Part shown: one piece after another, positions 16,687 through 35,613 of the stretch | Layout of the letters: every line of letters begins with the position of its first letter | Numbering within the stretch: position 1 is the first letter of the stretch | Assembly: GCA_964620265.1 (NCBI GenBank) | Contig: CAZUGY010000002.1 | Location: 13,504-77,503, forward strand | Origin: an uncultured Alcaligenaceae bacterium | GTDB lineage: Bacteria > Pseudomonadota > Gammaproteobacteria > Burkholderiales > Casimicrobiaceae | Direction of reading: 5' to 3' | DNA length: 64,000 nucleotides | Program-made: the position numbers and the translations under genes | The notes under the pieces: generated by a model | Database searches by the model: none | What the model saw: the letters and a program-made list of their open reading frames with translations, nothing else | Told to the model about the DNA's origin: nothing

Positions 16687-16702
16687 CCACCGCGGAACTG
16701 CC

Positions 16703-19180: not shown

Positions 19181-19220
19181 CCCGGCCTGCATTCCCCGTC
19201 CAACGAACGAGATCCCCGTC

Positions 19221-20870
19221 ATGAATCCCCTCGCCATCCAGCGCACTCCGGCGGCGCACGACACGCCGCTGATCCTCCGCCACATCCTCGAGCGCGGCGT
19301 CTCACAGGCCCCGCAGCAGGAGATCGTGTACGCCGACCAGGCGCGCCACACGTACACCACGCTCGCGGAGCGGATCGCGCGGCTGGCCTCCGGCCTCGCC
19401 GCGCTCGGCGTGCGCCCCGGCTCGACGGTGGGCGTGATGGACTGGGACAGCCACCGCTACCTCGAGTGCTTCTTCGCGATCCCGATGATGGGTGCGGTGC
19501 TGCACACGATCAACGTGCGCATCTCGCCGGACCAGATCCTCTACACCATCAATCACGCCGAAGACGACGTGATCCTGGTCAACGCCGAGTTCCTGCCCAT
19601 CCTGGAGGCGATCCAGCACAAGCTCCGGCGCGGCGTGAAGCTCGTGCTGCTCTGTGATCTGCCGGCCGCGCCGGCGTCGAGCCTCGCGTTCGCGCACGGC
19701 TACGAGGAGATGCTGGCATCCGCCCCGGCGTCGTACGCCTTTCCCGATCTTCCCGACGACACCCGCGCCACCACGTTCTACACGACGGGCACGACGGGCC
19801 TGCCGAAGGGCGTCTACTACAGCCATCGCCAGCTCGTGCTGCACACGCTGGCCATCGCGGAGGCCTTCGCGAATGCGCCGCACGCCTCGTTCACCGCGCG
19901 CGACGTGTACATGCCCGTCACGCCGATGTTCCACGTGCACGCGTGGGGGCTGCCCTATCTCGCGACCCTGCTCGGCGTGAAGCAGGTCTACCCGGGACGC
20001 TACGTGCCGGACAGGCTGCTCGCGCTCGTCACCCGCGAAGGCGTCACGTTCTCGCATTGCGTGCCGACGATCCTGTCGATGCTGCTCGGCAGCCCGGCGG
20101 TATCGGACGCGAACCTTGCCGGGTGGAAGATGATCATCGGCGGCTCGGCGCTCCCGCTGCCGCTCGCGCGCAAGGCCCTGGACTGCGGCATCGACGTGAT
20201 CGCCGGCTACGGCATGTCCGAGACCTGCCCGATCCTGACGCTCGCGCACCTGCGTCCGCACATGAGCGAATGGGACGTCGAGCGCAAGCTGCCGGTCCTC
20301 GTGCGCGCCGGGCGTCCGATTCCCTTCGTCGAGCTGCGCATCGTCGACGCGGACATGAACGACGTCCCGCACGACGGTGTGGCGCAGGGCGAGGTCGTGG
20401 TCCGCTCGCCCTGGCTCACGCAGGGCTACCTGCACGATCCCGAGCGCTCCGCCGAGCTCTGGCACGGCGGCTGGCTGCACACGGGCGACGTGGGCATCAT
20501 CGACACCGAGGGCTATCTCAAGATCGTCGACCGCATCAAGGACGTCGTGAAGACCGGCGGCGAGTGGGTCTCGTCGCTCGACATCGAGGACCTGGTGCTG
20601 CGCGTGCCCGGCATCGTCGAGGCCGCCGTCATCGGCGTGCCCGACGACAAGTGGGGCGAGCGCCCGGTGGCCTTCGTCGTGCGCAAGGGCGATGCCGGTG
20701 CGACCGAGGACGCCATCCGCCGTCACGTCCAGGACTTCGCGGATCGCGGCGCGATCTCGAAGTACGCCGTGCCGGACCGCGTGTACTTCGTCGAGGCGAT
20801 TCCGAAGACCAGCGTCGGCAAGCTCGACAAGAAGGTGATCCGCGCGCAGCTCGCGGCCCCCGCGAAGTGA
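19221..20870 (+). CDS. Medium/long-chain acyl-CoA ligase (AlkK/DmdB-like)
   Basis: YTTGTTGLPKG AMP-binding motif, PMFHVHAWG, GYGMSET, WLHTGD, DRIKDVVKTGGEW and PKTSVGKLDKK. Confidence 0.93.
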   Translation: MNPLAIQRTPAAHDTPLILRHILERGVSQAPQQEIVYADQARHTYTTLAERIARLASGLAALGVRPGSTVGVMDWDSHRYLECFFAIPMMGAVLHTINVRISPDQILYTINHAEDDVILVNAEFLPILEAIQHKLRRGVKLVLLCDLPAAPASSLAFAHGYEEMLASAPASYAFPDLPDDTRATTFYTTGTTGLPKGVYYSHRQLVLHTLAIAEAFANAPHASFTARDVYMPVTPMFHVHAWGLPYLATLLGVKQVYPGRYVPDRLLALVTREGVTFSHCVPTILSMLLGSPAVSDANLAGWKMIIGGSALPLPLARKALDCGIDVIAGYGMSETCPILTLAHLRPHMSEWDVERKLPVLVRAGRPIPFVELRIVDADMNDVPHDGVAQGEVVVRSPWLTQGYLHDPERSAELWHGGWLHTGDVGIIDTEGYLKIVDRIKDVVKTGGEWVSSLDIEDLVLRVPGIVEAAVIGVPDDKWGERPVAFVVRKGDAGATEDAIRRHVQDFADRGAISKYAVPDRVYFVEAIPKTSVGKLDKKVIRAQLAAPAK

Positions 20871-21415
20871 CCGAGCCCACCGTCCTGATCGTGCCCGGCC
20901 TGCGCGATCATGTGCCGGAGCATTGGCAGGCGCTGCTCGAGGCCCGGCTCCCCAACGCGCGCTGCGTGCCGCGGATGGAGCACGACAAGCTCTCGCGCGC
21001 GGCGTGGGTCGCGGCGCTCGACCAATCGCTCGCCGCGATCGACGGACCGGTGATCCTCGTCGCGCACAGCGCGGGCGTGCTCATCACCGTGCACTGGGCG
21101 CAGGAACACCGCCGTCCGATCCGCGGCGCGCTGCTCGCGACGCCGCCTGACCTGTCGCGCCCGCTGCCGGCCGGCTATCCGGCGCAGAGCGTGCTGCTCG
21201 CCAATGGGTGGCTGCCCACGCCCCGCGCGCGCCTGCCGTTTCCGAGCATCGTCGCGGCGAGCACGAACGATCCGCTCGCCGAGCCCGTCCACGTGGCCGC
21301 ACTCGCCAGCTCGTGGGGCAGCCGGCTCGTCGACGTCGGCGCGGTCGGACATCTCAATCCCGCCGCAGGCTACGGCCCATGGCCGCGCGCGGAAGCGCTG
21401 ATCGCCGAGCTCTGA
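20867..21415 (+). CDS. RBBP9/YdeN-family alpha/beta hydrolase
   Basis: GTG overlaps the ligase stop. LIVPGL, HWQ, VAHSAG (nucleophile Ser), ASTNDP and GHLN. Confidence 0.88.
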   Translation: MTEPTVLIVPGLRDHVPEHWQALLEARLPNARCVPRMEHDKLSRAAWVAALDQSLAAIDGPVILVAHSAGVLITVHWAQEHRRPIRGALLATPPDLSRPLPAGYPAQSVLLANGWLPTPRARLPFPSIVAASTNDPLAEPVHVAALASSWGSRLVDVGAVGHLNPAAGYGPWPRAEALIAEL

Positions 21416-21453
21416 ACGGACCAGACGGACGACGACGGACCGAGGCGGAGCAC

Positions 21454-21468
21454 TGTCGAGATTTGCAT
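21454..21468 (+). promoter_or_regulatory. Partial copy of the TGTC-N4-WTTGCA motif upstream of the DUF3302 operon
   Basis: TGTCGAGATTTGCAT differs from TGTCGAGTTTTGCAA (minus strand, 38574-38588) at 2 of 15 positions. It also overlaps the palindrome CGAGAT-ttgc-ATCTCG at 21457-21472. Confidence 0.4.
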
Positions 21469-21610
21469 CTCGGATGCTCGCGCAAGGATTGACGCCTTCC
21501 GCGGACACCGCGCTGCACCCCAGCGACAACCCGTGCCTGGCGCCGCGTCGGGACGCAGAAGCGGCGCCGCTGTAAACTCCGCTGCTATCCATCTGCTGGA
21601 GCACGTCCGC

Positions 21611-22162
21611 ATGCCTTTCCGGCCGCGCATTTTCGCCGCGATCCTGGCCCTTCTCGTACCGAGCGTCGCAAGCGCTTCCTTCCTTTCCGGTGACGCCCTC
21701 GACACCATGGCCGACTGGATCGCCATCGTGGTGCTCGTGGTCGTGCCAGCCGGCGTGATCGTGGTGTTCTGGATGATCCACGTCCTGCCCGAGAAGATCG
21801 CCGAGAAGCGGCACCATCCGCAGAAGGACGCGATCAACACGCTCTGCCTGCTCTCGCTCGTGTTCGGCGGGCTCCTGTGGCCCCTCGCCTGGATCTGGGC
21901 CTACACCAAGCCCGTGGCCTACCGGTCCGCCTACGGCACCGACAAGCACGACGACTGGTTCGCCGACATGGAGGCCCGCGCTCGCGCCGGCGACCTGAGC
22001 GACATCGAGCTCGGCGTGCTGCGCGACGAGCTCGACCATCGGGCCGGCGGCGGCCGCCTGCCGCCCGCGCTGGCGCGCTTGCGCCGCGAGCTCGACGAGC
22101 TGCCCGTGCGCCATGCCGCGCCGCCGGACGCCGCGCCGCCCGCCGCTGCCGGGGAGGCGTAG
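21611..22162 (+). CDS. DUF3302 (YiaW/YibI-like) small membrane protein
   Basis: IHVLPEKIAEKRHHPQKDAINTLCLLSLVFGGLLWPLAWIWAY is the family signature. It lies directly upstream of a HlyD gene. Confidence 0.82.
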   Translation: MPFRPRIFAAILALLVPSVASASFLSGDALDTMADWIAIVVLVVVPAGVIVVFWMIHVLPEKIAEKRHHPQKDAINTLCLLSLVFGGLLWPLAWIWAYTKPVAYRSAYGTDKHDDWFADMEARARAGDLSDIELGVLRDELDHRAGGGRLPPALARLRRELDELPVRHAAPPDAAPPAAAGEA

Positions 22163-22165
22163 CGC

Positions 22166-23392
22166 ATGGAAGCCCTCCTGCTCGGCATCTATTCGTTCTT
22201 CGTCTGGCTGATCTTCATCAAGTTCAAGTGGCTGCCGTGGAACATCACGTCGCAGGTCATCGTGGTGATCATCCCGGTGGTGGCGCTCACGGCGATGATC
22301 CTAACCCTCAATGTCGTGGCGCCCACCTCGGCCAACCTGCGCGTGTACAAGTACACGATCCCCATCGTGTCGCAGGTGCGGGGCCGCGTGCTCGAGGTAC
22401 CGGTGGAGGAAGGCAATCGCCTCGTCCGCAAGGGCGACGTCCTCTTCAAGGTGGATCCCACGCCCTACCAGCTCGACGTGGCGAGCCTCGAGGCACAGCT
22501 GGCGCTCGCCGAAGGCGGCCAGCGCGAAACGCAGGAGTCGCTGGGCGGGGCGGTGGCCAAGGTCGCGGAGTCGCGCGCCGCGATCGCGCAGGCCACCGCA
22601 CGGATATCGGAAGTGGATGCCAAGCTCGCGCTGGCGCGCAAGCGTGTCGACCAGTATCGCGAGCTCGTGACCTCGGGGGCGGGCAACCGCTTCGACCTCG
22701 AGGAGGCCGAGGCGAGCCTCGCCGAGCTTTCCGGCCAGCGCGAGGCCGCGCGCAGCGCCGAGGCACAGGCGCGCGCCGGCGAGGCGCAGGCGCAGGCGTC
22801 GGTGGCGCAGGTGCGGCAGAAGCTCGGCACCAAGGTCGACGGCGGCACCTACGCGCAGGTCGCGCAGATCCGGGCCCAGCTCGAGAACGCGCGCTGGCTG
22901 CTCGAGCAGACCACCACCGTGTCGCCCTGCGATTGCCACGTGATCAACCTGCAGCTGCGCGCCGGCGCCTTCGTGGCCGGGCTGCCGCTCAATCCGGTGA
23001 TGACGCTGGTGGAGGCCGACGGCCAGGTCGTCGCCTTCTATGCGCAGAACGAGCTCACGCGGGTGGCCGCCGGCGACGAGGCGGAGTTCGCGCTGCAGAC
23101 CTATCCCGGGCGCATCGTGAAGGGCAAGGTGGACTCGGTCGTGTGGGCCATCGGCCAGGGCTCGCTCCCGCCGAGCGGCACGATCCCGCTGTCGACACTC
23201 GCCACGCAGCCGCCGGGCCAGTTCGCGGTGAAGTTCGACCTCGCCGATCGCGACCGCGAGCTCTTCCTCGCCGCGGGCGCCGTGGGCCAGGCGGCCATCT
23301 ACACGCAATACGGCGCGATGCTGCACGTGGTGCGCAAGGTCATCCTGCGCGTGGGCTCGTACCTCAACTACCTCATCCTCAAGCTGCACTAG
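22166..23392 (+). CDS. HlyD-family membrane fusion protein (YiaV/YibH-like)
   Basis: Two N-terminal hydrophobic segments, IVSQVRGRVLEVPV, VRKGDVLFKVDPTPYQ, a coiled coil, and YPGRIVKGKVDSV. Confidence 0.9.
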   Translation: MEALLLGIYSFFVWLIFIKFKWLPWNITSQVIVVIIPVVALTAMILTLNVVAPTSANLRVYKYTIPIVSQVRGRVLEVPVEEGNRLVRKGDVLFKVDPTPYQLDVASLEAQLALAEGGQRETQESLGGAVAKVAESRAAIAQATARISEVDAKLALARKRVDQYRELVTSGAGNRFDLEEAEASLAELSGQREAARSAEAQARAGEAQAQASVAQVRQKLGTKVDGGTYAQVAQIRAQLENARWLLEQTTTVSPCDCHVINLQLRAGAFVAGLPLNPVMTLVEADGQVVAFYAQNELTRVAAGDEAEFALQTYPGRIVKGKVDSVVWAIGQGSLPPSGTIPLSTLATQPPGQFAVKFDLADRDRELFLAAGAVGQAAIYTQYGAMLHVVRKVILRVGSYLNYLILKLH

Positions 23393-23393
23393 G

Positions 23394-24866
23394 GTGACGA
23401 TCCGACGCATGGGCGCACACGCGAACGAACCCCGCGGCCGGCGCGGCATCGCCGCCTCGCTTGCCGCGGCGTGCGTGCTCGGCGGCTGCGCGCTGGCGCC
23501 GCCGCCTCCGGTGGAGGAAACGCGCACCACCGCCCTGCCGCAGGTCGTGGTGCCCGCGCACTACACGGCGCAGCCCGCGCCGACCGGCGCCGGCGCCGTC
23601 GTCGACGGCTGGATCGACACGTTCAACGATCCCGCGCTGACGACGCTCGTGCGCGAGGCGATCCTGTACAACAGCGACCTGCGGATCGCGCAGGCGCGCG
23701 TCGAGCAGGCGGCGGCGTATCTCAAGGTGGCGGGCGCCCTCCTCTATCCGCAGGTGAACCTCATGGGCCGCGGCGGCGGCCAGATGTCCGACAGCAGCGG
23801 CCTTTCCGGCGTGGGCATCTTCGCCAACTGGGAGCTCGACCTGTGGGGTCGCGTGCGCTCGGGCCAGGCCTTCGCGCGGGCGCAGTACGAGGCCACGCAG
23901 CTCGATGCGGAGTACGCGCGGCAATCGATCGCCGCCCTCGTGGCCAAGGGCTGGTTCCTCGCCATCGAGGCGCGCCTGCAGCGCGCGCAGGCCACGGCGA
24001 TGCGCGAGTCGGCCACGAAGCTCGTGGACCTCGCGCAGGACCGCCTGCGCGTGGGTCGCGGCGACGAATACGACGTGGCGCTCGCCCGCGCCAACGTCGC
24101 CACGCTGCGCGATACCGAGCGCAACCTCGAGGCGGCCTACCAGCAGGCGGTGCGCAGCCTCGAGACGCTCGTGGGACGCTATCCCGCCGCGGCGCTCGTG
24201 GCGCCGGCGCAGCTCACCGCCTGGCCGGGCGACGTGCCCGTGGGACTGCCCTCCGAGCTCCTCGAACGGCGCCCCGACGTCATCGCGGCGGAGCGGCGCG
24301 TGGCGGGTGCGTTCTACCGCACCGAGGAAGCCAAGGCCGCGCGGCTGCCGCGCATCACGCTCACGGCGAGCGTGACCTCGATCTCGAGCGAGCTCTTCGT
24401 GCTGAAGGCCACCGACAATCCCGTGTGGAGCCTGGGTGCCGGGTTGCTGCAGCCGCTCTTCCTGGGTGGCCAGCTGCAGGGCCAGGTCGAGCTGCGCACG
24501 GCCGAACAGCTGCAGACCGTGGCCGAATACGGCCGCACCGGTGCCCGCGCCTTCGCCGAGGTCGAGGATTCGCTGTCCAACGGCTTCGCGCTCGCCGACC
24601 GCGAGGCGCTGCTGGCCACGGCGGTGCGCGAGAACGCGCGCGCCTACGACTTGGCCGGCGTGCGCTACCGCGTAGGTGCCGGCGACCTGCGGGCCGTGCA
24701 GCAGCAACAGCTCGCGCTCTACGCCGCGCAGGTGCAGTTGCTGCGCGTGCAGGCCGAGCGCCTCGTGCAGCGGGTCAACCTCCACCTGGCCCTGGGCGGC
24801 AGCTTCGAATCGCCGCCGGTGCGGGCCGCCGCGGTGGCGCCCGCCCCGAGCGGAACGACCCAGTAG
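23394..24866 (+). CDS. Outer-membrane efflux factor lipoprotein (NodT/TolC family)
   Basis: Lipobox LGGC, NWELDLWGRVR, LLERRPDVIAAE and LHLALGGSF. Start may be the ATG at 23409. Confidence 0.92.
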   Translation: MTIRRMGAHANEPRGRRGIAASLAAACVLGGCALAPPPPVEETRTTALPQVVVPAHYTAQPAPTGAGAVVDGWIDTFNDPALTTLVREAILYNSDLRIAQARVEQAAAYLKVAGALLYPQVNLMGRGGGQMSDSSGLSGVGIFANWELDLWGRVRSGQAFARAQYEATQLDAEYARQSIAALVAKGWFLAIEARLQRAQATAMRESATKLVDLAQDRLRVGRGDEYDVALARANVATLRDTERNLEAAYQQAVRSLETLVGRYPAAALVAPAQLTAWPGDVPVGLPSELLERRPDVIAAERRVAGAFYRTEEAKAARLPRITLTASVTSISSELFVLKATDNPVWSLGAGLLQPLFLGGQLQGQVELRTAEQLQTVAEYGRTGARAFAEVEDSLSNGFALADREALLATAVRENARAYDLAGVRYRVGAGDLRAVQQQQLALYAAQVQLLRVQAERLVQRVNLHLALGGSFESPPVRAAAVAPAPSGTTQ

Positions 24867-24879
24867 GAAGCGCGCCGCC

Positions 24880-24911
24880 GCGCCTGCCCGGGTCTCGGGC
24901 CCGGCAGGCGC
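24880..24911 (+). terminator. GC-rich hairpin after the OMF gene (no U-tract)
   Basis: GCGCCTGCC (24880-24888) and GGCAGGCGC (24903-24911) form a perfect 9-bp stem. Confidence 0.4.
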
Positions 24912-24938
24912 TCCCGCACGGCACGCGCCGGGGGCGGT

Positions 24939-24967
24939 TCGACAAACCGCAGCGGCTGCGGTACAAA
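24939..24967 (+). promoter_or_regulatory. Sigma70-like promoter with a perfect palindromic operator in the spacer
   Basis: TCGACA (24939-24944), 17 nt spacer, TACAAA (24962-24967). ACCGCAGC-g-GCTGCGGT spans 24946-24962. Confidence 0.55.
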
Positions 24968-25041
24968 GCCGAAGCCCGTTTCCCCCGCTGCCTGCCGACA
25001 GCGTTCCCGCCTTGCCCGCCGCCCGCTTCGCCCCAGCTGCC

Positions 25042-26583
25042 ATGAATCCATCGCACGTCAAGCCACGCTCGCGCGTGGTGCGCCCCGTCATGGCCGCGCT
25101 TGCCGCGGCACTCCTCGTCGCCGGCTGCGGGCGGGAGCCGCCCAAGCCGCCCGAAAAGGGACCCGCCGAGGTCGCCGTGCAGACGATCCAGCGGGCGGAT
25201 GTGCCGATCGCCGCGGTCTACGTCGCGCAGACCCAGAGCTCGCAGGCGGTCAACATCCAGGCGCGGGTGTCCGGCTGGCTCGACAAGCGGCTGTATCGGG
25301 AGGGCTCCGTGGTGAAGAGCGGCCAGGTCCTCTTCCAGATGGACCCCAAGCCGTTCCAGGCGTCGCTCGCGGCCGCCCAGGCCGCGCTCCAGCGCAACCA
25401 GGCGGCCCTCACGGTCGCCCAGCAGAACCTGAACCGCACCAAGCCGCTGGCCCAGCAGAATGCGCTGTCGCAAAAGGACCTGGACGACGCGCAGGGGCAA
25501 TACGAGCAGTCCGCCGCCGCGGTGGAGCAGGCCAAGGCGCAGGTCACGCAGGCGCAGCTCGACCTCTCCTACACCACGATCCGCTCGCCGGTGGACGGCG
25601 TGTCGAGCTTCGCGGTCGTGGCCGACGGCACCTACCTGTCGCCTTCCAATTCGCAGCTCACCACGGTGTCGGTCCTCTCGCCGATGTGGGTCAACTTCAG
25701 CGTTTCCGAGAACGAGATGGAGCGCATCCGCAACGAGGTGCGCGCCGGGCAGCTCCGGCTGCCCGAGGGCGGACGCTTCGTCGTCGAGATCGAGATGGTC
25801 GACGGCAACCTCTTCCCCTACACGGGGGCGATCACGTTTGCCGATCCGTCGTACAACCCCACGACCGGCACCTTCCTCCTGCGCGCGACCGTCGACAATC
25901 CTGCGGGCGTGCTGCGGCCCAACCAGTACGTGCGCGTGCGCCTGAACGGCGCCGTGCGGCCGAATGCGATCGTCGTGCCGCAACGCGCCGTCCAGCAGAG
26001 TGCCAAGGGGCACTTCGTGTGGATCGTGAACAAGGACAACCACGCCGAGCTGCGTCCGGTCGTGGTCGGCCAGTGGAAGGGCGAGGGCTGGATCATCGCC
26101 GAGGGCCTCGACGACGGAGACCGGGTCGTCGTCGACGGCGGCATCCGGCTGGCGGAAGGCGCGCCGGTCAAGGCCACGCCCTACGTCGCGCCACCGCCCG
26201 CGCCCGCGACCGTGGGTCGCAGCGCGAGCGCAGGCACGGCCACGCTGCCCGCGCCGTATCCTGCGGCCACGCCGTCCAGCGTCTCGGTCTACTTCGACAA
26301 GGGTTCCGCCGCGCTCGACAGCAGCGCGGAGCGCACGCTGCGCTTCGCGGCGGCAGCATATGTGGGCATCGGCACCAGGGTTCTCGTCACGGGCCATGCC
26401 GACCGCACCGGCCATGCCGATGCGAACGTGGAGCTCGCGAAGAAGCGCGCCCAGGCCGTGCGTGACGGGCTCGTGCGGCTGGGCGTCGAGGCGCGGCGCA
26501 TCGAGCTCACGCCGCCGGCCAGCGTGACGGGATCGGGCAGCGACGACCAGGCGCGCCGCGTCGACCTGCGCGTGCAGCAGTAA
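25042..26583 (+). CDS. RND periplasmic adaptor lipoprotein with a C-terminal OmpA-like peptidoglycan-binding domain
   Basis: Lipobox LLVAGC and an AcrA-like body (IQARVSGWLDKR, TIRSPVDG, LRPNQYVRV). After a Pro/Ala linker comes VYFDKGSAAL...VTGHADRTG...ANVELAKKRAQAV...RRVDL. Confidence 0.9.
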   Translation: MNPSHVKPRSRVVRPVMAALAAALLVAGCGREPPKPPEKGPAEVAVQTIQRADVPIAAVYVAQTQSSQAVNIQARVSGWLDKRLYREGSVVKSGQVLFQMDPKPFQASLAAAQAALQRNQAALTVAQQNLNRTKPLAQQNALSQKDLDDAQGQYEQSAAAVEQAKAQVTQAQLDLSYTTIRSPVDGVSSFAVVADGTYLSPSNSQLTTVSVLSPMWVNFSVSENEMERIRNEVRAGQLRLPEGGRFVVEIEMVDGNLFPYTGAITFADPSYNPTTGTFLLRATVDNPAGVLRPNQYVRVRLNGAVRPNAIVVPQRAVQQSAKGHFVWIVNKDNHAELRPVVVGQWKGEGWIIAEGLDDGDRVVVDGGIRLAEGAPVKATPYVAPPPAPATVGRSASAGTATLPAPYPAATPSSVSVYFDKGSAALDSSAERTLRFAAAAYVGIGTRVLVTGHADRTGHADANVELAKKRAQAVRDGLVRLGVEARRIELTPPASVTGSGSDDQARRVDLRVQQ

Positions 26584-26595
26584 GGAGCGCCCGGC

Positions 26596-29500
26596 ATGCT
26601 GTCGCGCTTCTTCATCGAGCGGCCCGTCTTCGCGGCGGTCGTCGCGCTCATCATCTGCCTCGCCGGCCTCGTGTCGATGACGCAGCTCCCGGTTTCGCAG
26701 TATCCCTCCATCACGCCGGTGCAGGTGACGGTCTCGGCCAGCTACCCCGGCGCCGACTCGCGCACGCTCGCCGAGTCCGTGGCCTCGCCCATCGAGCAGC
26801 AGATCAACGGCGTGGACAACATGCTCTACATGTCGTCGACGTCGAGCTCGACCGGCCAGCTCACGATGACGATCTACTTCTCGCTCGACACCGATCCCGA
26901 CATCGCGCAGGTGCAGGTGCAGAACCGCGTCAACCTCGCGATGCCGCAGCTGCCGTCGGCCGTGGTGCAGCAGGGCGTGAACGTGCAGAAGAAGTCGTCG
27001 TCGATCATGATGCTGCTGGCGGTCTACGCGAAGGACAACCGCTACAGCGCGAACTACATCGCCAACTACGCCAACGTCTACGTGCTCGATGCGCTGAAGC
27101 GCGTCAACGGCGCGGGCCAGGCGCAGATCATGGGTGTGCCCAACCAGGCGATGCGCATCTGGATGAATCCGGACCGCATGGCCTCGCTCGGCATCACCAC
27201 GAGCGACATCGCCAACGCCATCAACCAGCAGAACCAGCTCTTCGGCGCGGGCCAGATCGGCCAGCAGCCCAATGCCGGGCCGGTGGAGCTCACCTTCCCG
27301 GTCATCACGCAGCCGCAGTACACCGATCCGCAGCAGTACGAGAACATCGTCCTGCGCGCCTCGCAGGACGGCGCGGCGATCGTGCGCGTGGGCGATGTGG
27401 CGCGCGCCGAGATCGGCCTGCAGCAATACATCGTCAACAGCCAGATGAACGGCACGCCGGCCACGATCATCGCGGTCTACCAGCAGCCGGGCGCCAACGG
27501 GCTCCTCGTCTCCCAGGCCGTGCGCGAGACGATGGACAAGATGAAGTCCAAGTTTCCCGACGGGATGGAGTATCTCGTCGCGCTCGACACCAACGACTTC
27601 GTGCGGCTGTCGATCAAGGAAGTCATCAAGACGCTCTTCGAGGCGATGCTGCTCGTGGTGCTCGTGGTGTATCTCTTCCTGCAGAGCTTCCGCACCACGA
27701 TCATCTGCGCGGTGGCGATCGTGATCGCGCTCATTGCCACCTTCGCAGGGATGCTGGCCCTCGGCTTCTCGATCAACCTCCTCACGCTCTTCGGGCTCGT
27801 GCTCGCCATCGGGATGGTGGTGGACGACGCCATCGTGGTGGTCGAGAACGTCGAGCGCAACATGCAGCAGCACCACCTGTCGCCGAAGGACGCGACGATC
27901 CGCTCCATGGACGAGATCGCGAGCTCGCTCGTGGCCGTGGTGCTCGTGATGTGCTCGGTGTTCATCCCGGCGGCGTTCCTGCCCGGCACCACGGGACAGC
28001 TCTACAAGCAGTTCGCGATCACCATCGTGATCTCGGTCTCGGTATCGGGATTCGTCGCGCTCACGGTCACGCCGGCGATGTGCGCGGTACTGCTGAAGCA
28101 CACCCCACCGCCCACGCGCGGGCCGTTCGCCTGGTTCAACCGGCAGGTGGATCGCGTGACGCAGGCGTTCGGCGTGGCGGTGGGCTACGTCATCAAGTAC
28201 GCGGTGGTCGCACTGATCCTGCTCGCGGTGTTCCTCTACTCGATCTTCCACCTCTTCAAGATCCTGCCCACGAGCTTCGTCCCCAACGAGGACCAGGGTT
28301 ACGCCTTCGCCGCGATCATCATGCCGCAGGCCGCGAGCCTCGCGCGCACGCAGGAGATCACCAACCGCGCCGATGCGATCTTCAAGGACATCCCGGGGGT
28401 CAAGACGCGCACGGTCGTCACCGGCTACAGCCTGCTCGACAGCGGGTTCAAGACCAGCGCCGGCACGATCTTCGTGAACTTCGACGACTTCGACAAGCGC
28501 TACGAAAGCATCGAGACGGCCAAGGCGCAGAACGTGCGCACTATCCTGCAGACGTTCTATGCCAGGTCGAGCCAGATCGAGGAAGCGATCGTGGTGCCCA
28601 TCGCGCCGCCCGCCATTCCCGGCATCGGCACCACCGGTGGCTTCGAGTTCTGGATCCAGGACACCGGCACCGGCGATCCGGTGGCGCTGGAGCACGTGCT
28701 GCAGGACGTGATGAAGGCGGCGCGGGCGCGTCCCGAGCTCACCGGGCTCGCCACCACCTACAACGCGAGCACGCAGCAGCTCAAGGCCAACGTCGATCGC
28801 GAGAAATCGCAGCTCCTGGGCGTGCCGATCCAGGACGTCTACAGTGCCATCCAGGCGCAGTTCGGCTCGCTCGCGGTCAGCCAGTACAACCTCTTCTCCA
28901 ACGTGTGGTGGGTGATCCTGCAGTCGGATGCGCCCTACCGGCAGAATCCCGAGGACCTCACGCGCCTGTACACGCGCAACGGCCAGAACCAGATGGTGCC
29001 GCTGTCGGCGGTGGTGACGACGGAATGGACGTCGGGGCCGGACATCCTGCCGCACTTCAACGGCTTTGCGGCGGCCAAGATCAACGGGAACGCGGCGGCA
29101 GGCTACAGCTCGGGCGACGCGATCAGGGTGATGGAAGAGGTCGCGGGCGAGGTGCTGCCGCCCGGCTATACGTTCGCGTGGTCGGGGCTCGCCTTCGAGG
29201 AGAAGCAATCGGGCGGCACGTCGGGGCTCGCCTTCATCTTCGGCTTCATCATCGTGTTCCTGGTGCTCGCCGCGCAGTACGAATCGTGGACGCTGCCCGG
29301 GGCCGTGATGTCCGCGGTGCCCTTCGGCATCCTCGGCGCGCTCCTCACCAACCACCTGCGCGGGCTCGACAACGACGTCTACTTCCAGATCGGCCTTCTC
29401 GTGCTGATCGGCCTGGGTGCGAAGAATGCGGTGCTGCGCGTGTCCGCAGCGATCGACTTCCGCAAGCAGGGCAAGTCGATCATGGAAGCGACGATCCTCG

Positions 29501-29865
29501 CGGGCGAGCAGCGCCTGCGGCCGATCATCATGACCTCGCTCGCCTTTGCCATCGGCTGCCTGCCGCTGGCGCTCGCGGTGGGCGCGGGTGCCAATGCACG
29601 CCATTCGATCGGCACCGGCATCATCGGCGGCATGCTGGGGGAGACCACGCTCGCGATGCTCTACGTCCCGCTGCTCTTCTATCTCTTCGACCGCATGAAG
29701 GAAGGCCGCGAGGAGACGGTCGTGCACGTTGGTGAGACCGCGCACGCCGCGGCGGTGCCGACCGCTGCGGAAGATGCCGCCGGACCGCTTGCGGCTGACG
29801 TCCCGCCCGACGCTTCCACGCCCCCGCCGTCGGCTTCCACGCCGCCGTCGCGTCCGCAAGGCTGA
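26596..29865 (+). CDS. HAE1-family RND efflux permease
   Basis: 1089 aa. MLSRFFIERPVFAAV, GMVVDDAIVVVENVER, GLGAKNAV and RLRPIIMTSLAF. Pro/Ser-rich tail. Confidence 0.96.
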   Translation: MLSRFFIERPVFAAVVALIICLAGLVSMTQLPVSQYPSITPVQVTVSASYPGADSRTLAESVASPIEQQINGVDNMLYMSSTSSSTGQLTMTIYFSLDTDPDIAQVQVQNRVNLAMPQLPSAVVQQGVNVQKKSSSIMMLLAVYAKDNRYSANYIANYANVYVLDALKRVNGAGQAQIMGVPNQAMRIWMNPDRMASLGITTSDIANAINQQNQLFGAGQIGQQPNAGPVELTFPVITQPQYTDPQQYENIVLRASQDGAAIVRVGDVARAEIGLQQYIVNSQMNGTPATIIAVYQQPGANGLLVSQAVRETMDKMKSKFPDGMEYLVALDTNDFVRLSIKEVIKTLFEAMLLVVLVVYLFLQSFRTTIICAVAIVIALIATFAGMLALGFSINLLTLFGLVLAIGMVVDDAIVVVENVERNMQQHHLSPKDATIRSMDEIASSLVAVVLVMCSVFIPAAFLPGTTGQLYKQFAITIVISVSVSGFVALTVTPAMCAVLLKHTPPPTRGPFAWFNRQVDRVTQAFGVAVGYVIKYAVVALILLAVFLYSIFHLFKILPTSFVPNEDQGYAFAAIIMPQAASLARTQEITNRADAIFKDIPGVKTRTVVTGYSLLDSGFKTSAGTIFVNFDDFDKRYESIETAKAQNVRTILQTFYARSSQIEEAIVVPIAPPAIPGIGTTGGFEFWIQDTGTGDPVALEHVLQDVMKAARARPELTGLATTYNASTQQLKANVDREKSQLLGVPIQDVYSAIQAQFGSLAVSQYNLFSNVWWVILQSDAPYRQNPEDLTRLYTRNGQNQMVPLSAVVTTEWTSGPDILPHFNGFAAAKINGNAAAGYSSGDAIRVMEEVAGEVLPPGYTFAWSGLAFEEKQSGGTSGLAFIFGFIIVFLVLAAQYESWTLPGAVMSAVPFGILGALLTNHLRGLDNDVYFQIGLLVLIGLGAKNAVLRVSAAIDFRKQGKSIMEATILAGEQRLRPIIMTSLAFAIGCLPLALAVGAGANARHSIGTGIIGGMLGETTLAMLYVPLLFYLFDRMKEGREETVVHVGETAHAAAVPTAAEDAAGPLAADVPPDASTPPPSASTPPSRPQG
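29812..29850 (+). repeat. Short imperfect tandem repeat in the permease tail (ASTPPPS-ASTPPS)
   Basis: GCTTCCACGCCCCCGCCGTCG is followed directly by GCTTCCACGCCGCCGTCG. Confidence 0.55.
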
Positions 29866-29869
29866 TCCC

Positions 29870-31375
29870 GTGCGCGACCTGGCCTGCCCTGTGCGCCGCG
29901 CTGCCGATCCCGTGCGGCGCCTCGTCGCCTCCCTCGCCTGCGCGAGCCTCGTCGCGGGCTGCACCGTGGGTCCCGATTACGCGCGGCCCGCGATCGACAC
30001 GCCCGCCACCTTCCTCTATTCGCCGAAGGACGCCGCGGACACCGCGAACACCGCGTGGTGGAAGCAGTTCGACGATCCGGTGCTCGATGCGCTGATCGCG
30101 GAAGCGCTCGCCCACAACCAGAGCATCAGGGTCGCCGTGGGCAATGTCGAGCAAGCGGCGGGGGTGCTCACGCAGACGCGCTCGGCACTCTTCCCGCAAC
30201 TCGGCGGCAATGCGTCGGCGGGCCGCGCGCGCAGCTCCGAATCGGGCATCAGTCCCGAAGCCGCGAGCGTGCTGCGCAATCCGCAGAGCGCGTACCAGGC
30301 ATTGCTCTCCGCGAGCTGGGAGATCGACCTGTGGGGCCGCATCCAGCGGCTGTCGGAAGCGTCGCGGGCCAATCTTCTCGCCACCGACGAGGCGCGCAAG
30401 GGCGTGATCCTCACGCTGGTTTCCGGTGTTGCCACGAGCTACCTCACGCTGCGCGGCCTCGACCAGCAGCTCGTGGTGGCCAAGCGCACGCTCGATACCT
30501 ACGGCGAATCGCTGCGCCTTTTCAAGCTGCAGTTCCAGTACGGCCAGATCTCGCAGATGAACGTGTCGCAGGTGCAGTCGCAATACGAGACGGCCGCGGC
30601 GGCGATCCCGCAGATCGAATCGGAGATAGCGCAGCAGGAGCTGGCGCTGTGCGTGCTGCTCGGGCGCAACCCCGGCCCGATCGCGCGCGGCAAGTCGATC
30701 TACGACCTCGCGCTGCCCGCGGTGCCCGCCGGCGTGCCGTCGGACCTCCTCACCCGCCGTCCGGACCTCGTGCAGGCGGAGAACCAGCTCGTGGCCGCCA
30801 ATGCGCAGATCGGCGCGGCGCGTGCGCTGTACTTCCCGCAGATCTCGCTCACGGCCGCGGGGGGCTCGGGCAGCCCGGCGCTGTCGGATCTGTTCACCGG
30901 GCCCGCGCGCGTGTGGAGCTACGCGGGCTCGCTCGTAGGCCCCATCTTCACGTTCGGCGCGGTGAGCGGCCAGGTGGCGGCCGCCGAAGGCGCGCGCGAC
31001 GCGGCGGTCGCCAACTATCGCTATGCGATCCAGAATGCCTTCTCCGAGGTCGACCAGTCGCTCGTGGCCAGCGAGAAGGTGCAGGAGCAGCTCGCGGCCC
31101 AGCAGCGGCTCGTGAATGCGCTCGGCGACTACTCGCGACTCGCGCACCTGCAATACGACGGCGGATACACGTCGTACACGACGGTGCTGCAGGCGGAGCA
31201 GCAGCTCTTTCCGGCCGAGCTGCAGCTCGCCGCGGTGCGCGCGACGGTATTCACGTCGTCCGTCGCGATCTACAAGGCGATGGGCGGCGGCTGGGTGGTG
31301 GAAGCCGATCGCATGACGGGCAATGCTGCTCCACCGCCCGCCGAGCGCAGCACGGGAATGCCGCCGCTCTTCTAG
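29870..31375 (+). CDS. Outer-membrane efflux factor lipoprotein (OprM/NodT family)
   Basis: Lipobox VAGC-TVGPDY, SWEIDLWGR, LLTRRPDLVQAE and YKAMGGGW. GTG start at 29870 or 29912. Confidence 0.93.
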   Translation: MRDLACPVRRAADPVRRLVASLACASLVAGCTVGPDYARPAIDTPATFLYSPKDAADTANTAWWKQFDDPVLDALIAEALAHNQSIRVAVGNVEQAAGVLTQTRSALFPQLGGNASAGRARSSESGISPEAASVLRNPQSAYQALLSASWEIDLWGRIQRLSEASRANLLATDEARKGVILTLVSGVATSYLTLRGLDQQLVVAKRTLDTYGESLRLFKLQFQYGQISQMNVSQVQSQYETAAAAIPQIESEIAQQELALCVLLGRNPGPIARGKSIYDLALPAVPAGVPSDLLTRRPDLVQAENQLVAANAQIGAARALYFPQISLTAAGGSGSPALSDLFTGPARVWSYAGSLVGPIFTFGAVSGQVAAAEGARDAAVANYRYAIQNAFSEVDQSLVASEKVQEQLAAQQRLVNALGDYSRLAHLQYDGGYTSYTTVLQAEQQLFPAELQLAAVRATVFTSSVAIYKAMGGGWVVEADRMTGNAAPPPAERSTGMPPLF

Positions 31376-31574
31376 GCATCGCCGCAGCTCGCGGCAACCT
31401 GCACGCCACCACCGTTGTCACCGATGGCCCGCTCATGCACGGGAAGCTGACCCATGTCATCTCCTCCGGATCGCGACGCGCGCAGAATCGTCTTGCATTC
31501 GCGCGGCCACGCCGCGCGGGCGTTGATCCGCACACGCTCCATTCAAACATTCCGACAATCACGAGGAGACGACG

Positions 31575-32135
31575 ATGAACCACCGCAGCATCATGGCAGC
31601 CGCCCTGTTCTGGGCGATGAGTTCCGGATTCGCATTCGCCGCGGACAAGGCCAAGGACCAGGCCGAAGTGAAGGCGGCGGGCGAGGCCGCGCTCGCCGCG
31701 CTCTACAAGGCGCAGCCCTCCGCGCGCAAGGCTGTCGAGTCTGCCGCGGGCTACGCCGCCTTCAGCAATTTCGGGATGAAGATACTCGTGGCCGGCGGCG
31801 GCTCGGGGAAGGGCATCGCCGTGAACAACAAGACCAAGGCCATCACCTACATGAAGATGGCCGAGGTGCAGGCGGGACTTGGCATCGGTGCCAAGAAGTT
31901 CCAGGTCGTGTGGGTATTCGCGGACGACGCCGCGCTCAACAATTTCATCAACTCCGGCTGGGAGTTCGGCGGTCAGGCCACCGCGGCCGCGAAATCGGGC
32001 GACAAGGGCAGCGCCTACCAGGGGGCCGTTTCGGTGTCGCCGGGCGTGTGGCTCTACCAGGTCACCGACAAGGGCCTCGCGCTGGAGCTCACCGCCAAGG
32101 GGACCAAGTACTACAAGGATGCGGATCTCAACTGA
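31575..32135 (+). CDS. Secreted YSC84/SYLF-like lipid-binding domain protein
   Basis: Signal peptide, GYAAFSNFG, GGGSGKGIAV, EVQAGLGIGAKKFQVVWVF and GWEFGGQATAAA. GAGGAG RBS. Confidence 0.8.
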   Translation: MNHRSIMAAALFWAMSSGFAFAADKAKDQAEVKAAGEAALAALYKAQPSARKAVESAAGYAAFSNFGMKILVAGGGSGKGIAVNNKTKAITYMKMAEVQAGLGIGAKKFQVVWVFADDAALNNFINSGWEFGGQATAAAKSGDKGSAYQGAVSVSPGVWLYQVTDKGLALELTAKGTKYYKDADLN

Positions 32136-32175: not shown

Positions 32176-33870
32176 CTATGCGATGAGCCGCACGATCACC
32201 GTGCCCCACGTCGTGAGGAGGATGTGGCCTATCGCCACGGTCCCCGAGTAGCCCAGCACGGCCACCGAGCTTCCCGAACGCTCCTGCACGGCGGCGAGCG
32301 CCGCCGTCATCGTCTGCGCGCCCGCGAGCCCGCCGAGCAGCAGCAACGGATTGAGCTTCAGCACGTAGCGTCCGAAGTAGAGGCCCACGAAGAGCGGCGC
32401 GAGGGTCACCAGCACGCCGCCCAGCAGCAGCCCGATGCCGGACTCGCGCACCGCCGTCATGAAGTGGGGACCCGCCCCCAGGCCGATCATCGCCACGAAC
32501 GCCGCCAGGCCCAGCGAGATCATCAGGGCGACCGCGCCCGACGGTATCCTGCCGAAGCGGGGCCGCACCGAGTGCAGGTAGCCCACGAGGAGCCCCGCGA
32601 GCAGGGTGCCCACGCTCGTCCCCATCGCGATGCGCAACTCCCCCAGCGGAACCACGATGGAAACGCCCACGATGGCGCCGGTGACGATGCCGAGGCCCAG
32701 CGCGACGAAGTCGGTCTGGTCCGTGGGCAGCACGATCTCGCCCAGGCTGTCGGCAGCGCGCTTGACCGCGGCGGTTCGTCCCGACAGATACACGATGTCG
32801 CCGGCCTCGATCACGGTACCGGGTGCAACCGGCAGCTCCTGCCCTCCGCGGGAGATCGAGCGCAGGAAGACGCCGCGCAGCGGCACGTCCGACTGCACGA
32901 TCTGCGCGATGGACTTGCCGGCGATCGCCCTGTTCGATACGAACACGCCGCACGCCATCACCGGAACGTCGAGCGCCTCGCGATCCTCGATCTCGGTGGC
33001 ACCTGCGCGGCCGATCACGTCGGTGAGGATCTCGCGCCGGCCCGACAACGCCAGCACGTCGCCCGCGAGCACGACCGTGGACATGTCCGGCTCGATGAGA
33101 CGGCCGTCGCGCCGGATCCGCTCCACGAAGACGCGCGCGTCCGGCACCATGCCTTCGATCTGCTGCACGGTATGGCCCGCCACCCGGCCGCCCTCTTGCA
33201 CCCGGTAGGCGCGCAGCTCGAACGGCCGCCACGCCGAGCCCACCCCGGCGCTCGTGCGCCCGATGCCCAGCGACTCCTCCACCGCCCTTCCTTCGGCGGC
33301 GAGGTCGATGCGCAGGAGCTTCGGTCCGATCACGCTGCAGAACACGATGACCCCGAGCGCGCCGAAGACGTAGCACAGCGCATCGGCGACCGCGACGTGT
33401 CCCACGAGGCGCTCGCGCACGTCCTCGGGCAGCGGCAGCGACTGGATCGCCTCGATCGCGGTGCCGATCGCCGGTGACTCGGTGAGGGCGCCCGACAGGA
33501 GTCCCGCCGCCAGCCCCGGATCGAGATCGAGAAAGCGCGCGACGGCATACGCGGCGCCCAGTCCCGTGAAGGACATGACCGTCGCGAGCGCCGCCCACCG
33601 CAATCCGTCGCCCTTCATCGCCTTGAAGAATTGCGGCCCGACGGAGTAGCCGATGGCGAACAGGAACAGCATGAACATCAGCGACTTGGCCATCGACGAC
33701 ACGGTGACCGGAAACACGTAGCCCACCACAAGCCCCACCAGGAGGGACCCCGTGACCGGCCCGAGCGCAAAGCCCATGACCTTCAGGTTGCCGAGCCAGT
33801 AGCCGATCCCCACCACGAAGAACACGGCGACTTCCGGATACTTCGCCAGCGTCGCGGCCATCCAGTCCAT
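32176..33870 (-). CDS. AspT/YidE-family (AAE) amino acid exchanger with two TrkA-C domains
   Basis: FMLFLFAIGYSVGPQFF, GLLSGALTESPAIG, central RCK-C loops, LFGGLAGAQT-like GGLAGAQTMTAAL and LGYSGTVAIGHILLT. Confidence 0.9.
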   Translation of the reverse strand: MDWMAATLAKYPEVAVFFVVGIGYWLGNLKVMGFALGPVTGSLLVGLVVGYVFPVTVSSMAKSLMFMLFLFAIGYSVGPQFFKAMKGDGLRWAALATVMSFTGLGAAYAVARFLDLDPGLAAGLLSGALTESPAIGTAIEAIQSLPLPEDVRERLVGHVAVADALCYVFGALGVIVFCSVIGPKLLRIDLAAEGRAVEESLGIGRTSAGVGSAWRPFELRAYRVQEGGRVAGHTVQQIEGMVPDARVFVERIRRDGRLIEPDMSTVVLAGDVLALSGRREILTDVIGRAGATEIEDREALDVPVMACGVFVSNRAIAGKSIAQIVQSDVPLRGVFLRSISRGGQELPVAPGTVIEAGDIVYLSGRTAAVKRAADSLGEIVLPTDQTDFVALGLGIVTGAIVGVSIVVPLGELRIAMGTSVGTLLAGLLVGYLHSVRPRFGRIPSGAVALMISLGLAAFVAMIGLGAGPHFMTAVRESGIGLLLGGVLVTLAPLFVGLYFGRYVLKLNPLLLLGGLAGAQTMTAALAAVQERSGSSVAVLGYSGTVAIGHILLTTWGTVIVRLIA

Positions 33871-33885
33871 GCGCGCTCCCGGTCG

Positions 33886-35613
33886 CTACTTCGACAGCAC
33901 CATCGCGAGATAGCCGAACACGGTGAGCAGCACGCCCGATACCGCGTAGCCCACGGGAAAGCCGATCCACGGCACCGAGCTGTCGATCTCCTTGGCCGCC
34001 TCGCGCGCAGGACCCGAGTGCGACCGCGCGCCGGCCACGCCGCCCATCAGCACCGCCGGATTGATCTTCATCCAGTGGTAGCCGATGGCCCACACGAGGA
34101 TCGGCGGGATGGTGGTGACGATGAAGCCCGCGAGGAAGATGTACAGCGCGACCGCGCCCGTGAGCTGCGAGATGAGGCCCGCGCCGGCGTTGATGCCCAC
34201 GATCGCGATGAACACGATGAGCCCCAGGTCCTCCAGGATGTTGCGCGCGGCATTGGGCGTGTTGCCGAAGAAGCGCAGGCGCGACACCACCGAGGACACG
34301 ATCACGCCCGAGACCAGCAGGCCCCCGGCGTTGCCGAGGCCCACGTTGGATCCGGCCAGCGGAAAGGAGATCGCGCCGATGAGGAAGCCCAGGATCATGC
34401 CGAGCGACAGCGTGAGGAGGTCGGTGGCGGTGCTCGGCCGCGCGACCTTGCCGAGGAGGCCGGAGAGCTTGCCGACGGCGGACTTGAGGCCCACCACGAA
34501 CAGCACGTCGAAGCGCTGCAGCTTGACGTGCAGGCCCACCGGGATCGGAACGCCGCCGCGCTCGAGGCGCTGCAGGCCGAGCTGGCCCGCGAATTCGGCG
34601 GTGCGCAGATCGCCCAGCTCCTTGCCTTCCATGTCCTTGTTGGTGACGAGGATCTCGGCCTGGTCGAGCGGGATGTTGAGCGCCTTCGCATCCGGCACCT
34701 CGGGGCCGATGAGCCCCATGCGCTCGGTCATCGAATCGAGGCGCCCGCCGAGCACGATCACGTCGCCCTCGCGCAGCACGAGGTCGTCGGGCGCGCCGAG
34801 CATGTCGGAGCGGTCGCTGTCGGGGAGGTCAGCGCCCGGCCGCCGCACGTTGACGATCTTGTATTCCGGATTGCGCTGCAGGAACTGCAGCACCGTGGAG
34901 CCCACGACCTGCGCATTGGTGAGGCGATAGGCGCGCAACGCGAGCGGCCGGTAGCCCGTGAGGCCGGCATCGTCGACATTGGGCACGCCCTCTTCCTCCT
35001 CGTAGCGCTTGGCGGCCGCCTTGGCATCGATGCCCCACCAGCGCGGCAGGTACTTGCAGATGAGGATGATGCCCACCGTCCCCCAGATGTACGTCAGCCC
35101 GTAGGACAGCGCGATCATGCCGCTCACGGTCTCGAAGGTCTGTCCAGGCCCCAGCGGGAACACGCCCTGCCGCACCGCTTCCTCCGCCGAGCCGATCGCC
35201 GCCGACATCGTCATCGCGCCGGCGAGGATGCCCCCCGCCGCGCCCGCGGGCAGGTCCCACAGCTTGGAGAAGAACACCGCGCCCAGGAGTCCCAGGATCG
35301 AGCAGAACACCGCGAGCACGGTGAACTTCAAGCCGTCGCCCTTCAGGCTGTTGATGAACGACGGCCCCACGCGCAGCCCCACCCCGTACATGAAGAGGTA
35401 GTAGAAGAGCGACTTCGTGAAGTTGTCGAGGCTCATCTTGATGCCGTAGGTGGACGCCCACGCGGAGATGCCCGCCCCCACCACGATGGCGGACGCCACC
35501 ATGCCCAGCCCATAGCCCTTGACCGTGAACTTGCCGAGGAGGACCGCGCCACCCACCGTGAAGAAGAGCAGGATGAAGGGATTCGCCGCCAGCCACTTGA
35601 GGAAGATTTCCAT
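33886..35613 (-). CDS. AspT/YidE-family (AAE) exchanger, second copy
   Basis: YLFMYGVGLRVGPSF, GILAGAMTMSAAIG, TrkA-C loops, GGVAGARSHSG and GFPVGYAVSGVLLT. Confidence 0.9.
   Translation of the reverse strand: MEIFLKWLAANPFILLFFTVGGAVLLGKFTVKGYGLGMVASAIVVGAGISAWASTYGIKMSLDNFTKSLFYYLFMYGVGLRVGPSFINSLKGDGLKFTVLAVFCSILGLLGAVFFSKLWDLPAGAAGGILAGAMTMSAAIGSAEEAVRQGVFPLGPGQTFETVSGMIALSYGLTYIWGTVGIILICKYLPRWWGIDAKAAAKRYEEEEGVPNVDDAGLTGYRPLALRAYRLTNAQVVGSTVLQFLQRNPEYKIVNVRRPGADLPDSDRSDMLGAPDDLVLREGDVIVLGGRLDSMTERMGLIGPEVPDAKALNIPLDQAEILVTNKDMEGKELGDLRTAEFAGQLGLQRLERGGVPIPVGLHVKLQRFDVLFVVGLKSAVGKLSGLLGKVARPSTATDLLTLSLGMILGFLIGAISFPLAGSNVGLGNAGGLLVSGVIVSSVVSRLRFFGNTPNAARNILEDLGLIVFIAIVGINAGAGLISQLTGAVALYIFLAGFIVTTIPPILVWAIGYHWMKINPAVLMGGVAGARSHSGPAREAAKEIDSSVPWIGFPVGYAVSGVLLTVFGYLAMVLSK

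Follow-up and report, generated by a model that had tools for sequence, protein, structure and literature searches.

A single gene encoding a lipoprotein efflux adaptor joined to a predicted OmpA-like peptidoglycan-binding domain was examined in a 64,000-nucleotide stretch of DNA (referred to here as the window), which spans positions 13,504 to 77,503 of contig CAZUGY010000002.1 in assembly GCA_964620265.1, from an uncultured Alcaligenaceae bacterium placed in the Casimicrobiaceae (Burkholderiales) by GTDB. The gene is one uninterrupted frame of 513 codons at 25042-26583 (+), ending with TAA at 26581-26583. Judged by its sequence and predicted fold, the product is a full member of both the resistance-nodulation-division (RND) periplasmic adaptor family and the OmpA-like domain family, and all of the sequence and fold comparisons tested for the two families agreed on this placement. 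The fusion is no rarity of the window; database matches indicate a large, already sequenced family found in hundreds of soil betaproteobacteria. We consider it probable that six tethered peptidoglycan-binding domains per pump would anchor the inner-membrane adaptor/permease subcomplex to the sacculus, with both the binding and its benefit inferred.

The adaptor part is recognised by several profiles. Its N-terminal lipoprotein signal reads ...ALLVAGC, with Cys29 invariant in an alignment of 136 fused homologues, and Met17 (25090) is a possible alternative start. The NCBIfam model TIGR01730 (RND_mfp) covers residues 44-378 (E = 1e-82, 277.8 bits versus a cut-off of 94.9), the next-best NCBIfam models being those of the MexX, MexC, AcrA, MexE and MexA adaptors. 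Pfam HlyD_D23 matches residues 63-297 (E = 1.8e-18), with HlyD_3 and CusB_dom_1 also matching this part of the protein. An AlphaFold2 model of the full protein, built on the 136 fused homologues, has a mean predicted local distance difference test score (pLDDT) of 78 and displays a long alpha-hairpin at residues 103-176 together with beta-rich domains at pLDDT 80-96. Foldseek comparison of this part returned AcrA (9tg4, 5ng5) and MexA (6iok, 2v4d) as found in assembled pumps, with E-values from 1e-33 to 1e-26 over ~345 columns, at 29-35% identity to AcrA and MexA.

Beyond the adaptor, the model is disordered over linker residues 387-411 (pLDDT ~31) and then forms a compact beta-alpha-beta-alpha-beta-beta domain at residues 413-512 (pLDDT 80-95). 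Pfam OmpA (PF00691) matches residues 417-489 (E = 4.6e-14, 53.0 bits versus a gathering score of 27.2), and a phmmer search of PDB sequences with the last 127 residues returned YiaD (2k1s, E = 3e-7) and the Pal protein of Acinetobacter baumannii (4g4v, E = 3.6e-7). The OmpA-like motif of the window protein is VTGHADRTGHADANVELAKKRAQAV; in the phmmer alignments its GHAD falls under GHTD and its KKRA under ERRA, such that Asp454 (codon 26401-26403) and Arg469 (codon 26446-26448) align with Pal 4g4v and YiaD 2k1s. A model of the OmpA-like tail built as a domain on its own (pLDDT 81.8, predicted template modelling score 0.73) superposes on Pal and on the C-terminal domains of OmpA, OprF and MotB with template modelling (TM) scores of 0.70-0.83 in Foldseek. 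The best of these matches is the OmpA C-like domain 9uu2 (TM 0.83, root-mean-square deviation 1.9 Å), followed by Pal structures from Burkholderia, Acinetobacter and E. coli (5n2c, 4b5c, 4g4w, 2hqs; TM 0.73-0.77), MotB-C (TM 0.70-0.76) and 3td5, the structure of an OmpA-like domain of A. baumannii together with a peptide that contains diaminopimelate (TM 0.74). The diaminopimelate ligands of A. baumannii OmpA (AbOmpA) are Asp271 and Arg286 (PMC5974059, citing Park et al. 2012), with which Asp454 and Arg469 are equated through the family motif.

These results bear out the anatomy given in the original prediction, which was made from the letters and their open reading frames and described a complete AcrA-like lipoprotein adaptor, a Pro/Ala linker and an OmpA_C/Pal/MotB-type motif that includes the diaminopimelate-binding Asp and Arg. 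The motif aligns residue for residue with the GHTDxxG...N...RRA of 4g4v and 2k1s, and the OmpA-like part, put at about 26281-26580, equals residues 414-513 and coincides with the modelled domain. The frame translates through without the stop or frameshift whose absence had been noted, and the permease does begin 13 nt on, with the stop ending at 26583 and the permease ATG at 26596. Two other identities were considered for the protein and rejected. A MotB/PomB-type stator subunit, which would begin with a transmembrane helix bearing a proton-binding Asp, does not fit the N-terminal 380 residues, which form a lipoprotein efflux adaptor, nor the neighbourhood, where MotA/ExbB-family genes are absent; the Pal of a Tol-Pal system, an outer-membrane lipoprotein of ~150-170 aa whose gene neighbours tolB, is at odds with the score for TIGR02802 (Pal_lipo; 39.5 bits versus a cut-off of 125) and with the position of the gene in an RND operon.

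The distribution of the fusion was assessed in a 5.8-billion-protein collection, in which matches came from independent NCBI, JGI, ENA and Logan assemblies. All of the best 120 homologues (68-85% identity, ~500 aa) carry PF00691 and the adaptor domains in one protein, a search with residues 385-513 alone again returned only adaptor-OmpA fusions among the matches listed, and the single-frame architecture occurs in more than 130 independent protein clusters. Within the same (Casimicrobiaceae-like) family the fusion is present in ~75 of 326 species-representative genomes, in three of 12 genera, counting genomes that encode a protein covering query residues 300-513 end to end, and among 401 genomes sampled from the order it is also carried by six that belong to three other families. 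The matching public contigs are all titled as metagenome-assembled genomes (MAGs) of Casimicrobiaceae, Burkholderiales or Betaproteobacteria. A 400-genome class-wide sample, in which the class is under-sampled, contained no fused form at E <= 1e-24, and this sample was judged too thin because the protein search later found a fused protein in Dyella soli. In five relatives (G252:C4, G333:C2, G307:C2, G011:C6 and G099:C9) the adaptor and OmpA parts lie in different frames or a stop occurs near the linker; these breaks may mark genuine decay or the division of one gene into two, or may instead be indel errors, several of the genomes being low-contig (possibly long-read) assemblies.

A second, more distant group of fused adaptors is present in cultured bacteria. 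When residues 300-513 were compared exhaustively with 1.84 billion cluster representatives, only a handful of full-length fused clusters were recovered at the 50% level (P0151, P0157, P0160 and P0163). Almost all of the best 120 relatives of P0163, the most distant cluster, are fused, the remainder being a few 390-420-aa matches without PF00691, so that unfused relatives also exist in Paraburkholderia. The relatives of P0163 include P. phytofirmans, P. tropica, P. sacchari, P. unamae, P. nodosa, P. bannensis, P. bryophila and other Paraburkholderia, as well as Burkholderia sp. 9120 and Dyella soli. In the finished genome of P. phytofirmans PsJN, a plant-associated laboratory strain, the gene lies at CP001053.1:188110-189792, followed by genes for a 1055-aa RND permease and a 472-aa outer-membrane factor, and its product (ACD18531.1 / WP_012426047.1 / UniProt B2TEL0) has 42% end-to-end identity to the window protein, a linker of ~85 residues and retained SGYTD...N...LA..RA and RRVD motifs.

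A tree of OmpA domains places both adaptor-borne types in one sub-clade (support 99) that also holds OmpA domains from DUF937-OmpA and cytochrome c-OmpA proteins and whose inner branches form a polytomy. The grouping of all adaptor-borne OmpA domains into one clade is neither supported nor rejected (approximately unbiased test, p = 0.08), and a common origin of the two fused OmpA clades is thus neither shown nor excluded by the sequences. The occurrence of one OmpA sub-clade on adaptors, DUF937 proteins and cytochromes c suggests that this domain is portable and serves periplasmic modules of unrelated kinds as a wall anchor. Outside the adaptors, the linker and OmpA tail finds its nearest relatives, at 45-51% identity, in DUF937-OmpA proteins of ~370-390 aa and in fusions of cytochrome c with OmpA (P0216, P0218, P0254, P0258, P0259, P0264, P0266, P0273, P0274, P0289 and P0293).

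Conservation within the 136 fused homologues is uneven along the protein, with mean pairwise identities of 82% for the adaptor core, 68% for the OmpA domain and 32% for the linker. The linker ranges from 23 to 80 residues (median 29) and consists of 27% Ala, 20% Pro and 11% Ser. The difference between domain and linker indicates that the OmpA-like domain is under purifying selection. Its family consensus is TGYADKTGNAAANVELAKKRA, and 14 tail positions are invariant, namely F418, T445, G451, D454, G457, N462, A466, R469, L477, G481, R486, P492, R505 and R506. Both putative ligand residues, Asp454 and Arg469, are thus retained in 136 of 136 fused homologues, and they are also invariant in a mixed set of 59 sequences that takes in other architectures. 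Pairwise distances of the core and of the OmpA domain co-vary (r = 0.69; none of 999 permutations as high), which indicates that both parts were inherited jointly as a single gene.

Based on these observations we propose the following working model. The adaptor of a MexAB-OprM-like pump has gained an Ala/Pro-rich flexible tether and a Pal/OmpA-type domain at its C-terminus. With six adaptors, three permeases and three channel protomers to each tripartite pump, a fused pump would carry six tethered wall-binding domains. Because an adaptor chain both begins and ends in its membrane-proximal domain, beside the inner membrane, the tether would leave the adaptor there and the OmpA-like domain would reach the underside of the sacculus. 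The domain would bind stem peptides non-covalently and so hold the adaptor/permease subcomplex in place against the wall. Since the channel in the outer membrane crosses the wall and is nearly immobile, a subcomplex held in this way would help the full pump to assemble or to persist.

A contour computation gives the 32-residue tether a length of ~38 Å as a random coil and 99-109 Å when stretched; to this reach the membrane-proximal domain adds its height and the OmpA-like domain its size, both being estimated rather than measured values. The lower wall face lies ~94 Å above the inner membrane in E. coli and ~154 Å in P. aeruginosa (Ma et al., PMC8158685), and wall contact by the tether is feasible, within or near the limit of its reach. 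The model is in line with reports on ordinary pumps: AcrA contacts peptidoglycan in situ according to density from electron cryo-tomography (cryo-ET) (PMC6570770), MexA-OprM co-precipitates with peptidoglycan (PMC8158685), and the wall is at the level of the AcrA-TolC junction (PMC13082787). The cell-wall-tethered adaptor put forward in the original prediction agrees with everything testable by sequence, with peptidoglycan binding and the suggested benefits for positioning, stability and assembly as its predicted elements.

Several observations weigh against this proposal. The domain has been lost repeatedly. Unfused close orthologues in the same genus and family (62-76% core identity; examples are L005, L008, L095, L088, L057, L076, L085 and L082), with losses checked by translation, end in a short Pro/Ala-rich tail with the permease gene next. 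In a maximum-likelihood tree of the adaptor core, comprising 58 fused and 22 unfused sequences (L081 and L094, two of the latter, may only be cut off at a contig end), unfused forms arise within fused clades at many points; parsimony requires 11 changes, and the well-supported branches alone force at least six. With the fused state on every major branch and a linker relic in the truncated forms, the likeliest reading of this pattern is a single old fusion with repeated later losses. Repeated loss shows that the pump works without the domain, the benefit of which may be small or conditional; relatives that lack it keep an ordinary pump, and the OmpA-like tail is thus an accessory that the pump itself can do without, and not a core part. 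Two fused copies have altered motifs and may be degenerating: in L052:2242-2571 the GYADKTG of the family is replaced by ASAERSG, with Glu in place of Asp, and in L078:7090-7419 two residues are deleted and the conserved Asn is absent. The geometry is also demanding, as the shortest linkers (23 aa, ~78 Å stretched) would be nearly taut at the wall distances of E. coli and P. aeruginosa, the two species that supplied the envelope dimensions, which may not be those of the fusion carriers. Finally, the lipoprotein is presumed to be retained in the inner membrane from its Gly at +2, as in MexA. Among the other loci, the L082 and L089 sequences contain stops, and L015 and a paralogue from the source genome were left out of the comparisons. 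As a separate observation, the adaptor frame of the unfused L074:6943-7542 stays open over 200 codons or more and continues into the permease gene in a different frame, which may reflect a lost stop codon or a sequencing error.

The repeated losses among close relatives, the Pro/Ala relic tails of the truncated forms and the few members with altered motifs (L052, L078) could also be taken to mean that the domain is a neutral or decaying passenger from one fusion event, functionless and on its way to loss, as could the frame breaks in or near the linker of some genomes, although many of these are long-read MAGs that may carry indel errors. A passenger would not be expected to maintain 68% mean pairwise identity next to a linker at 32%, nor 14 invariant positions, both ligand residues among them, across 136 sequences; moreover, the fusion is kept in at least four families of the order and, with the motif intact, in the second clade at 42% identity. 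We therefore regard the passenger explanation as highly improbable. That the fusion is an artefact of misassembly, frameshift or read-through of neighbouring genes was worth considering for a source genome that is a 287-contig MAG, but the same single open reading frame in more than 130 protein clusters, ~75 species genomes and finished genomes of cultured strains such as PsJN leaves this a negligible chance. Misassembly and frameshift are excluded for practical purposes, because the same one-gene architecture recurs across independent assemblies.

Another alternative is that the domain does bind something, or tethers something, but in the service of a process besides pump mechanics, whether through a protein partner (the outer-membrane factor or a different envelope protein), a polymer other than peptidoglycan, or a general inner-membrane-to-wall tether that makes use of an abundant adaptor. 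OmpA-like domains are known to make protein contacts, and two such complexes, Pal-TolB (2hqs) and YfiB-YfiR (5eb1), are among the fold matches; tolerance of domain loss and the joining of the same OmpA sub-clade to unrelated DUF937 and cytochrome c modules would suit such a role as well. The residues kept invariant, however, coincide exactly with the peptidoglycan (diaminopimelate) ligands and with the NxxLAxxRA core; the domain invariably occurs on this single adaptor lineage and within the pump operon, and the loci examined hold no co-occurring candidate partner gene. A role outside the pump is accordingly improbable in our assessment, if less so than a functionless domain, and anchoring of the pump to the wall is the reading we prefer.

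In AcrA (397 aa) and MexA (383 aa) the chain stops soon after the membrane-proximal domain. Their systems, MexAB-OprM and AcrAB-TolC, resemble the fused system in the gene order adaptor-permease-outer-membrane factor, the HAE1 permease and the NodT-type channel, and both adaptors share the four-domain lipoprotein architecture of the window protein. The latter, unlike AcrA and MexA, adds a tether of ~32 aa and a dedicated 100-aa OmpA-like domain. The canonical adaptors already touch peptidoglycan weakly via their upper parts (PMC6570770, PMC8158685). In MotB and PomB, as in the window protein, a part tethered to the inner membrane is joined, through a linker that is flexible or can extend, to an OmpA-like domain which must reach the wall. 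The window protein differs from both in having no transmembrane helix, plug or MotA/ExbB-type partner and in using a lipid-modified adaptor as the anchor, so that only the anchoring principle is shared, and no generation of torque or force is implied here. TagL/TssL-type anchors of type VI secretion likewise fasten an inner-membrane machine to peptidoglycan by a C-terminal OmpA-like domain.

Besides MotB/PomB/TagL anchoring, the nearest functional parallels are YbjP and SiiA, the latter a MotB-like peptidoglycan-binding accessory of the tripartite type 1 secretion system encoded by Salmonella pathogenicity island 4 (SPI4; bioRxiv 10.1101/641415). With SiiA, as in the fused adaptor, an OmpA/MotB-like module is tied to a machine of adaptor, transporter and TolC-like channel, but SiiA is a separate membrane protein that forms a proton-channel-like pair with SiiB in an ABC-type system, in contrast to a covalent RND adaptor fusion. 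YbjP, a lipoprotein partner of TolC in AcrABZ-TolC and MacAB-TolC (PMC13082787, PMC13095208; PDB 9tg4, 9v53), is a recently recognised accessory by which part of a tripartite pump is linked to a layer of the envelope, and it shows that pumps possess envelope-anchoring parts that had been overlooked; it is, however, a separate outer-membrane lipoprotein of unrelated fold that binds TolC and shows no avid or specific peptidoglycan binding. Pal and YiaD, the best sequence and structure matches of the tail, share its GxxD...N...RA motif but are small stand-alone lipoproteins, Pal acting with TolB in the tol-pal operon, whereas the window domain is the tail of an efflux adaptor.

No paper on an adaptor-OmpA fusion was found in the literature, subscription journals being mostly outside the reach of the search, and 'OmpA' goes unmentioned in the first 300,000 of the ~748,000 characters of a 2021 Chem Rev review of tripartite pumps. 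Databases name hundreds of the fused proteins only 'efflux RND transporter periplasmic adaptor subunit' or 'MdtA', a systematic annotation gap. As the sequences have long been public, the novelty is functional and conceptual and does not consist in a new sequence family. Anchoring by OmpA-like domains is a common device, and the fusion is in that sense unsurprising in kind, yet it is an unstudied, widespread and experimentally accessible handle on how envelope-spanning pumps relate to the peptidoglycan layer they cross. That relation has recently been addressed only indirectly, through AcrA cryo-ET density, MexA-OprM pull-downs, simulations and the TolC partner YbjP, and a natural, conserved fusion is 'Rosetta-stone' evidence that selection can act in favour of wall contact. 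Truncations and point mutants offer a direct test of the idea because the family includes cultured, non-pathogenic, genetically tractable Paraburkholderia, with the natural repeated deletions of the domain serving as controls.

A more speculative extension is that wall-tethering of RND adaptors is a general, overlooked design principle. On this view six OmpA-like domains would clamp the subcomplex under one sacculus mesh, pre-positioned for channel docking as a fixed 'port', the patchy gain and loss of the domain would reflect a trade-off between pump stability and the freedom of a growing wall, unrelated wall-binding modules would have been recruited convergently to adaptors, and ordinary pumps would also depend on peptidoglycan contact; we think this doubtful, though worth keeping in view.

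The fused gene is the first of a complete adaptor-permease-outer-membrane factor operon which, from the profile matches of its members, is in MexAB-OprM order (Table 1). A GGAG motif directly follows the stop of the fused gene. The permease scored 1256 bits with NF000282 (cut-off 1250) and 1128 bits with TIGR00915 (cut-off 940), and the outer-membrane factor, whose start is uncertain (GTG at 29852 or 29891), scored 379 bits with TIGR01845 (cut-off 210). The same gene order is kept in the distant fused relatives L091 and L054 and in P. phytofirmans PsJN. A promoter and terminator scan of 21300-31800 gave nothing above shuffled expectation.

Table 1 Features of the fused gene, its operon and the upstream genes, in window coordinates
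Feature	Position	Strand	Details or basis
Whole fused gene: lipoprotein RND periplasmic adaptor, linker and OmpA-like domain	25042..26583	+	513 aa, stop included
Signal peptide with lipobox LLVAGC; lipidated Cys29 = codon 25126-25128	25042..25128	+	Sequence
AcrA/MexA-type adaptor core, residues 44-378: alpha-hairpin, lipoyl, beta-barrel and membrane-proximal domains	25171..26175	+	TIGR01730, AlphaFold2, Foldseek
Low-complexity Ala/Pro/Ser linker, residues 381-412, ~32 residues	26182..26277	+	pLDDT, alignment
OmpA/Pal-like peptidoglycan-binding domain (predicted), residues 413-513	26278..26580	+	PF00691, domain model
12-nt spacer with GGAG ribosome-binding site before permease gene	26584..26595	+	Sequence
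RND permease, HAE1 (multidrug) type, 1089 aa	26596..29865	+	Pfam ACR_tran, E = 0
Outer-membrane factor, NodT/OprM-type lipoprotein, lipobox LVAGC	29852..31375	+	Pfam OEP, E = 4e-47
DUF3302 protein	21533-22162	+	
EmrA/MdtN-like HlyD adaptor	22166-23392	+	
Second NodT-type outer-membrane factor	23394-24866	+	
DUF1329/LolA-like protein	14288-15649	+	
MMPL/RND-like protein, 825 aa	16703-19180	+	
AMP-binding enzyme	19221-20870	+	

The source genome (4.19 Mb in 287 contigs, metagenome-assembled, 99.7% complete) also encodes five other OmpA-domain proteins and at least three other RND-type adaptors, all of the latter without an OmpA-like tail. Directly upstream of the operon lies a separate three-gene module (21533-24866, +) with no transporter gene between its members, comprising a DUF3302 protein, an HlyD adaptor and a channel, which we take to resemble E. 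coli yiaW-yiaV plus a channel; in L054 an adaptor and outer-membrane factor pair is likewise found upstream of the fused gene. An envelope-related cluster is present further upstream (14288-20870, +), and on the opposite strand, at 32176-35613 (-), are two tandem paralogous Asp-Al_Ex/TrkA_C permease genes (32176-33870 and 33886-35613).

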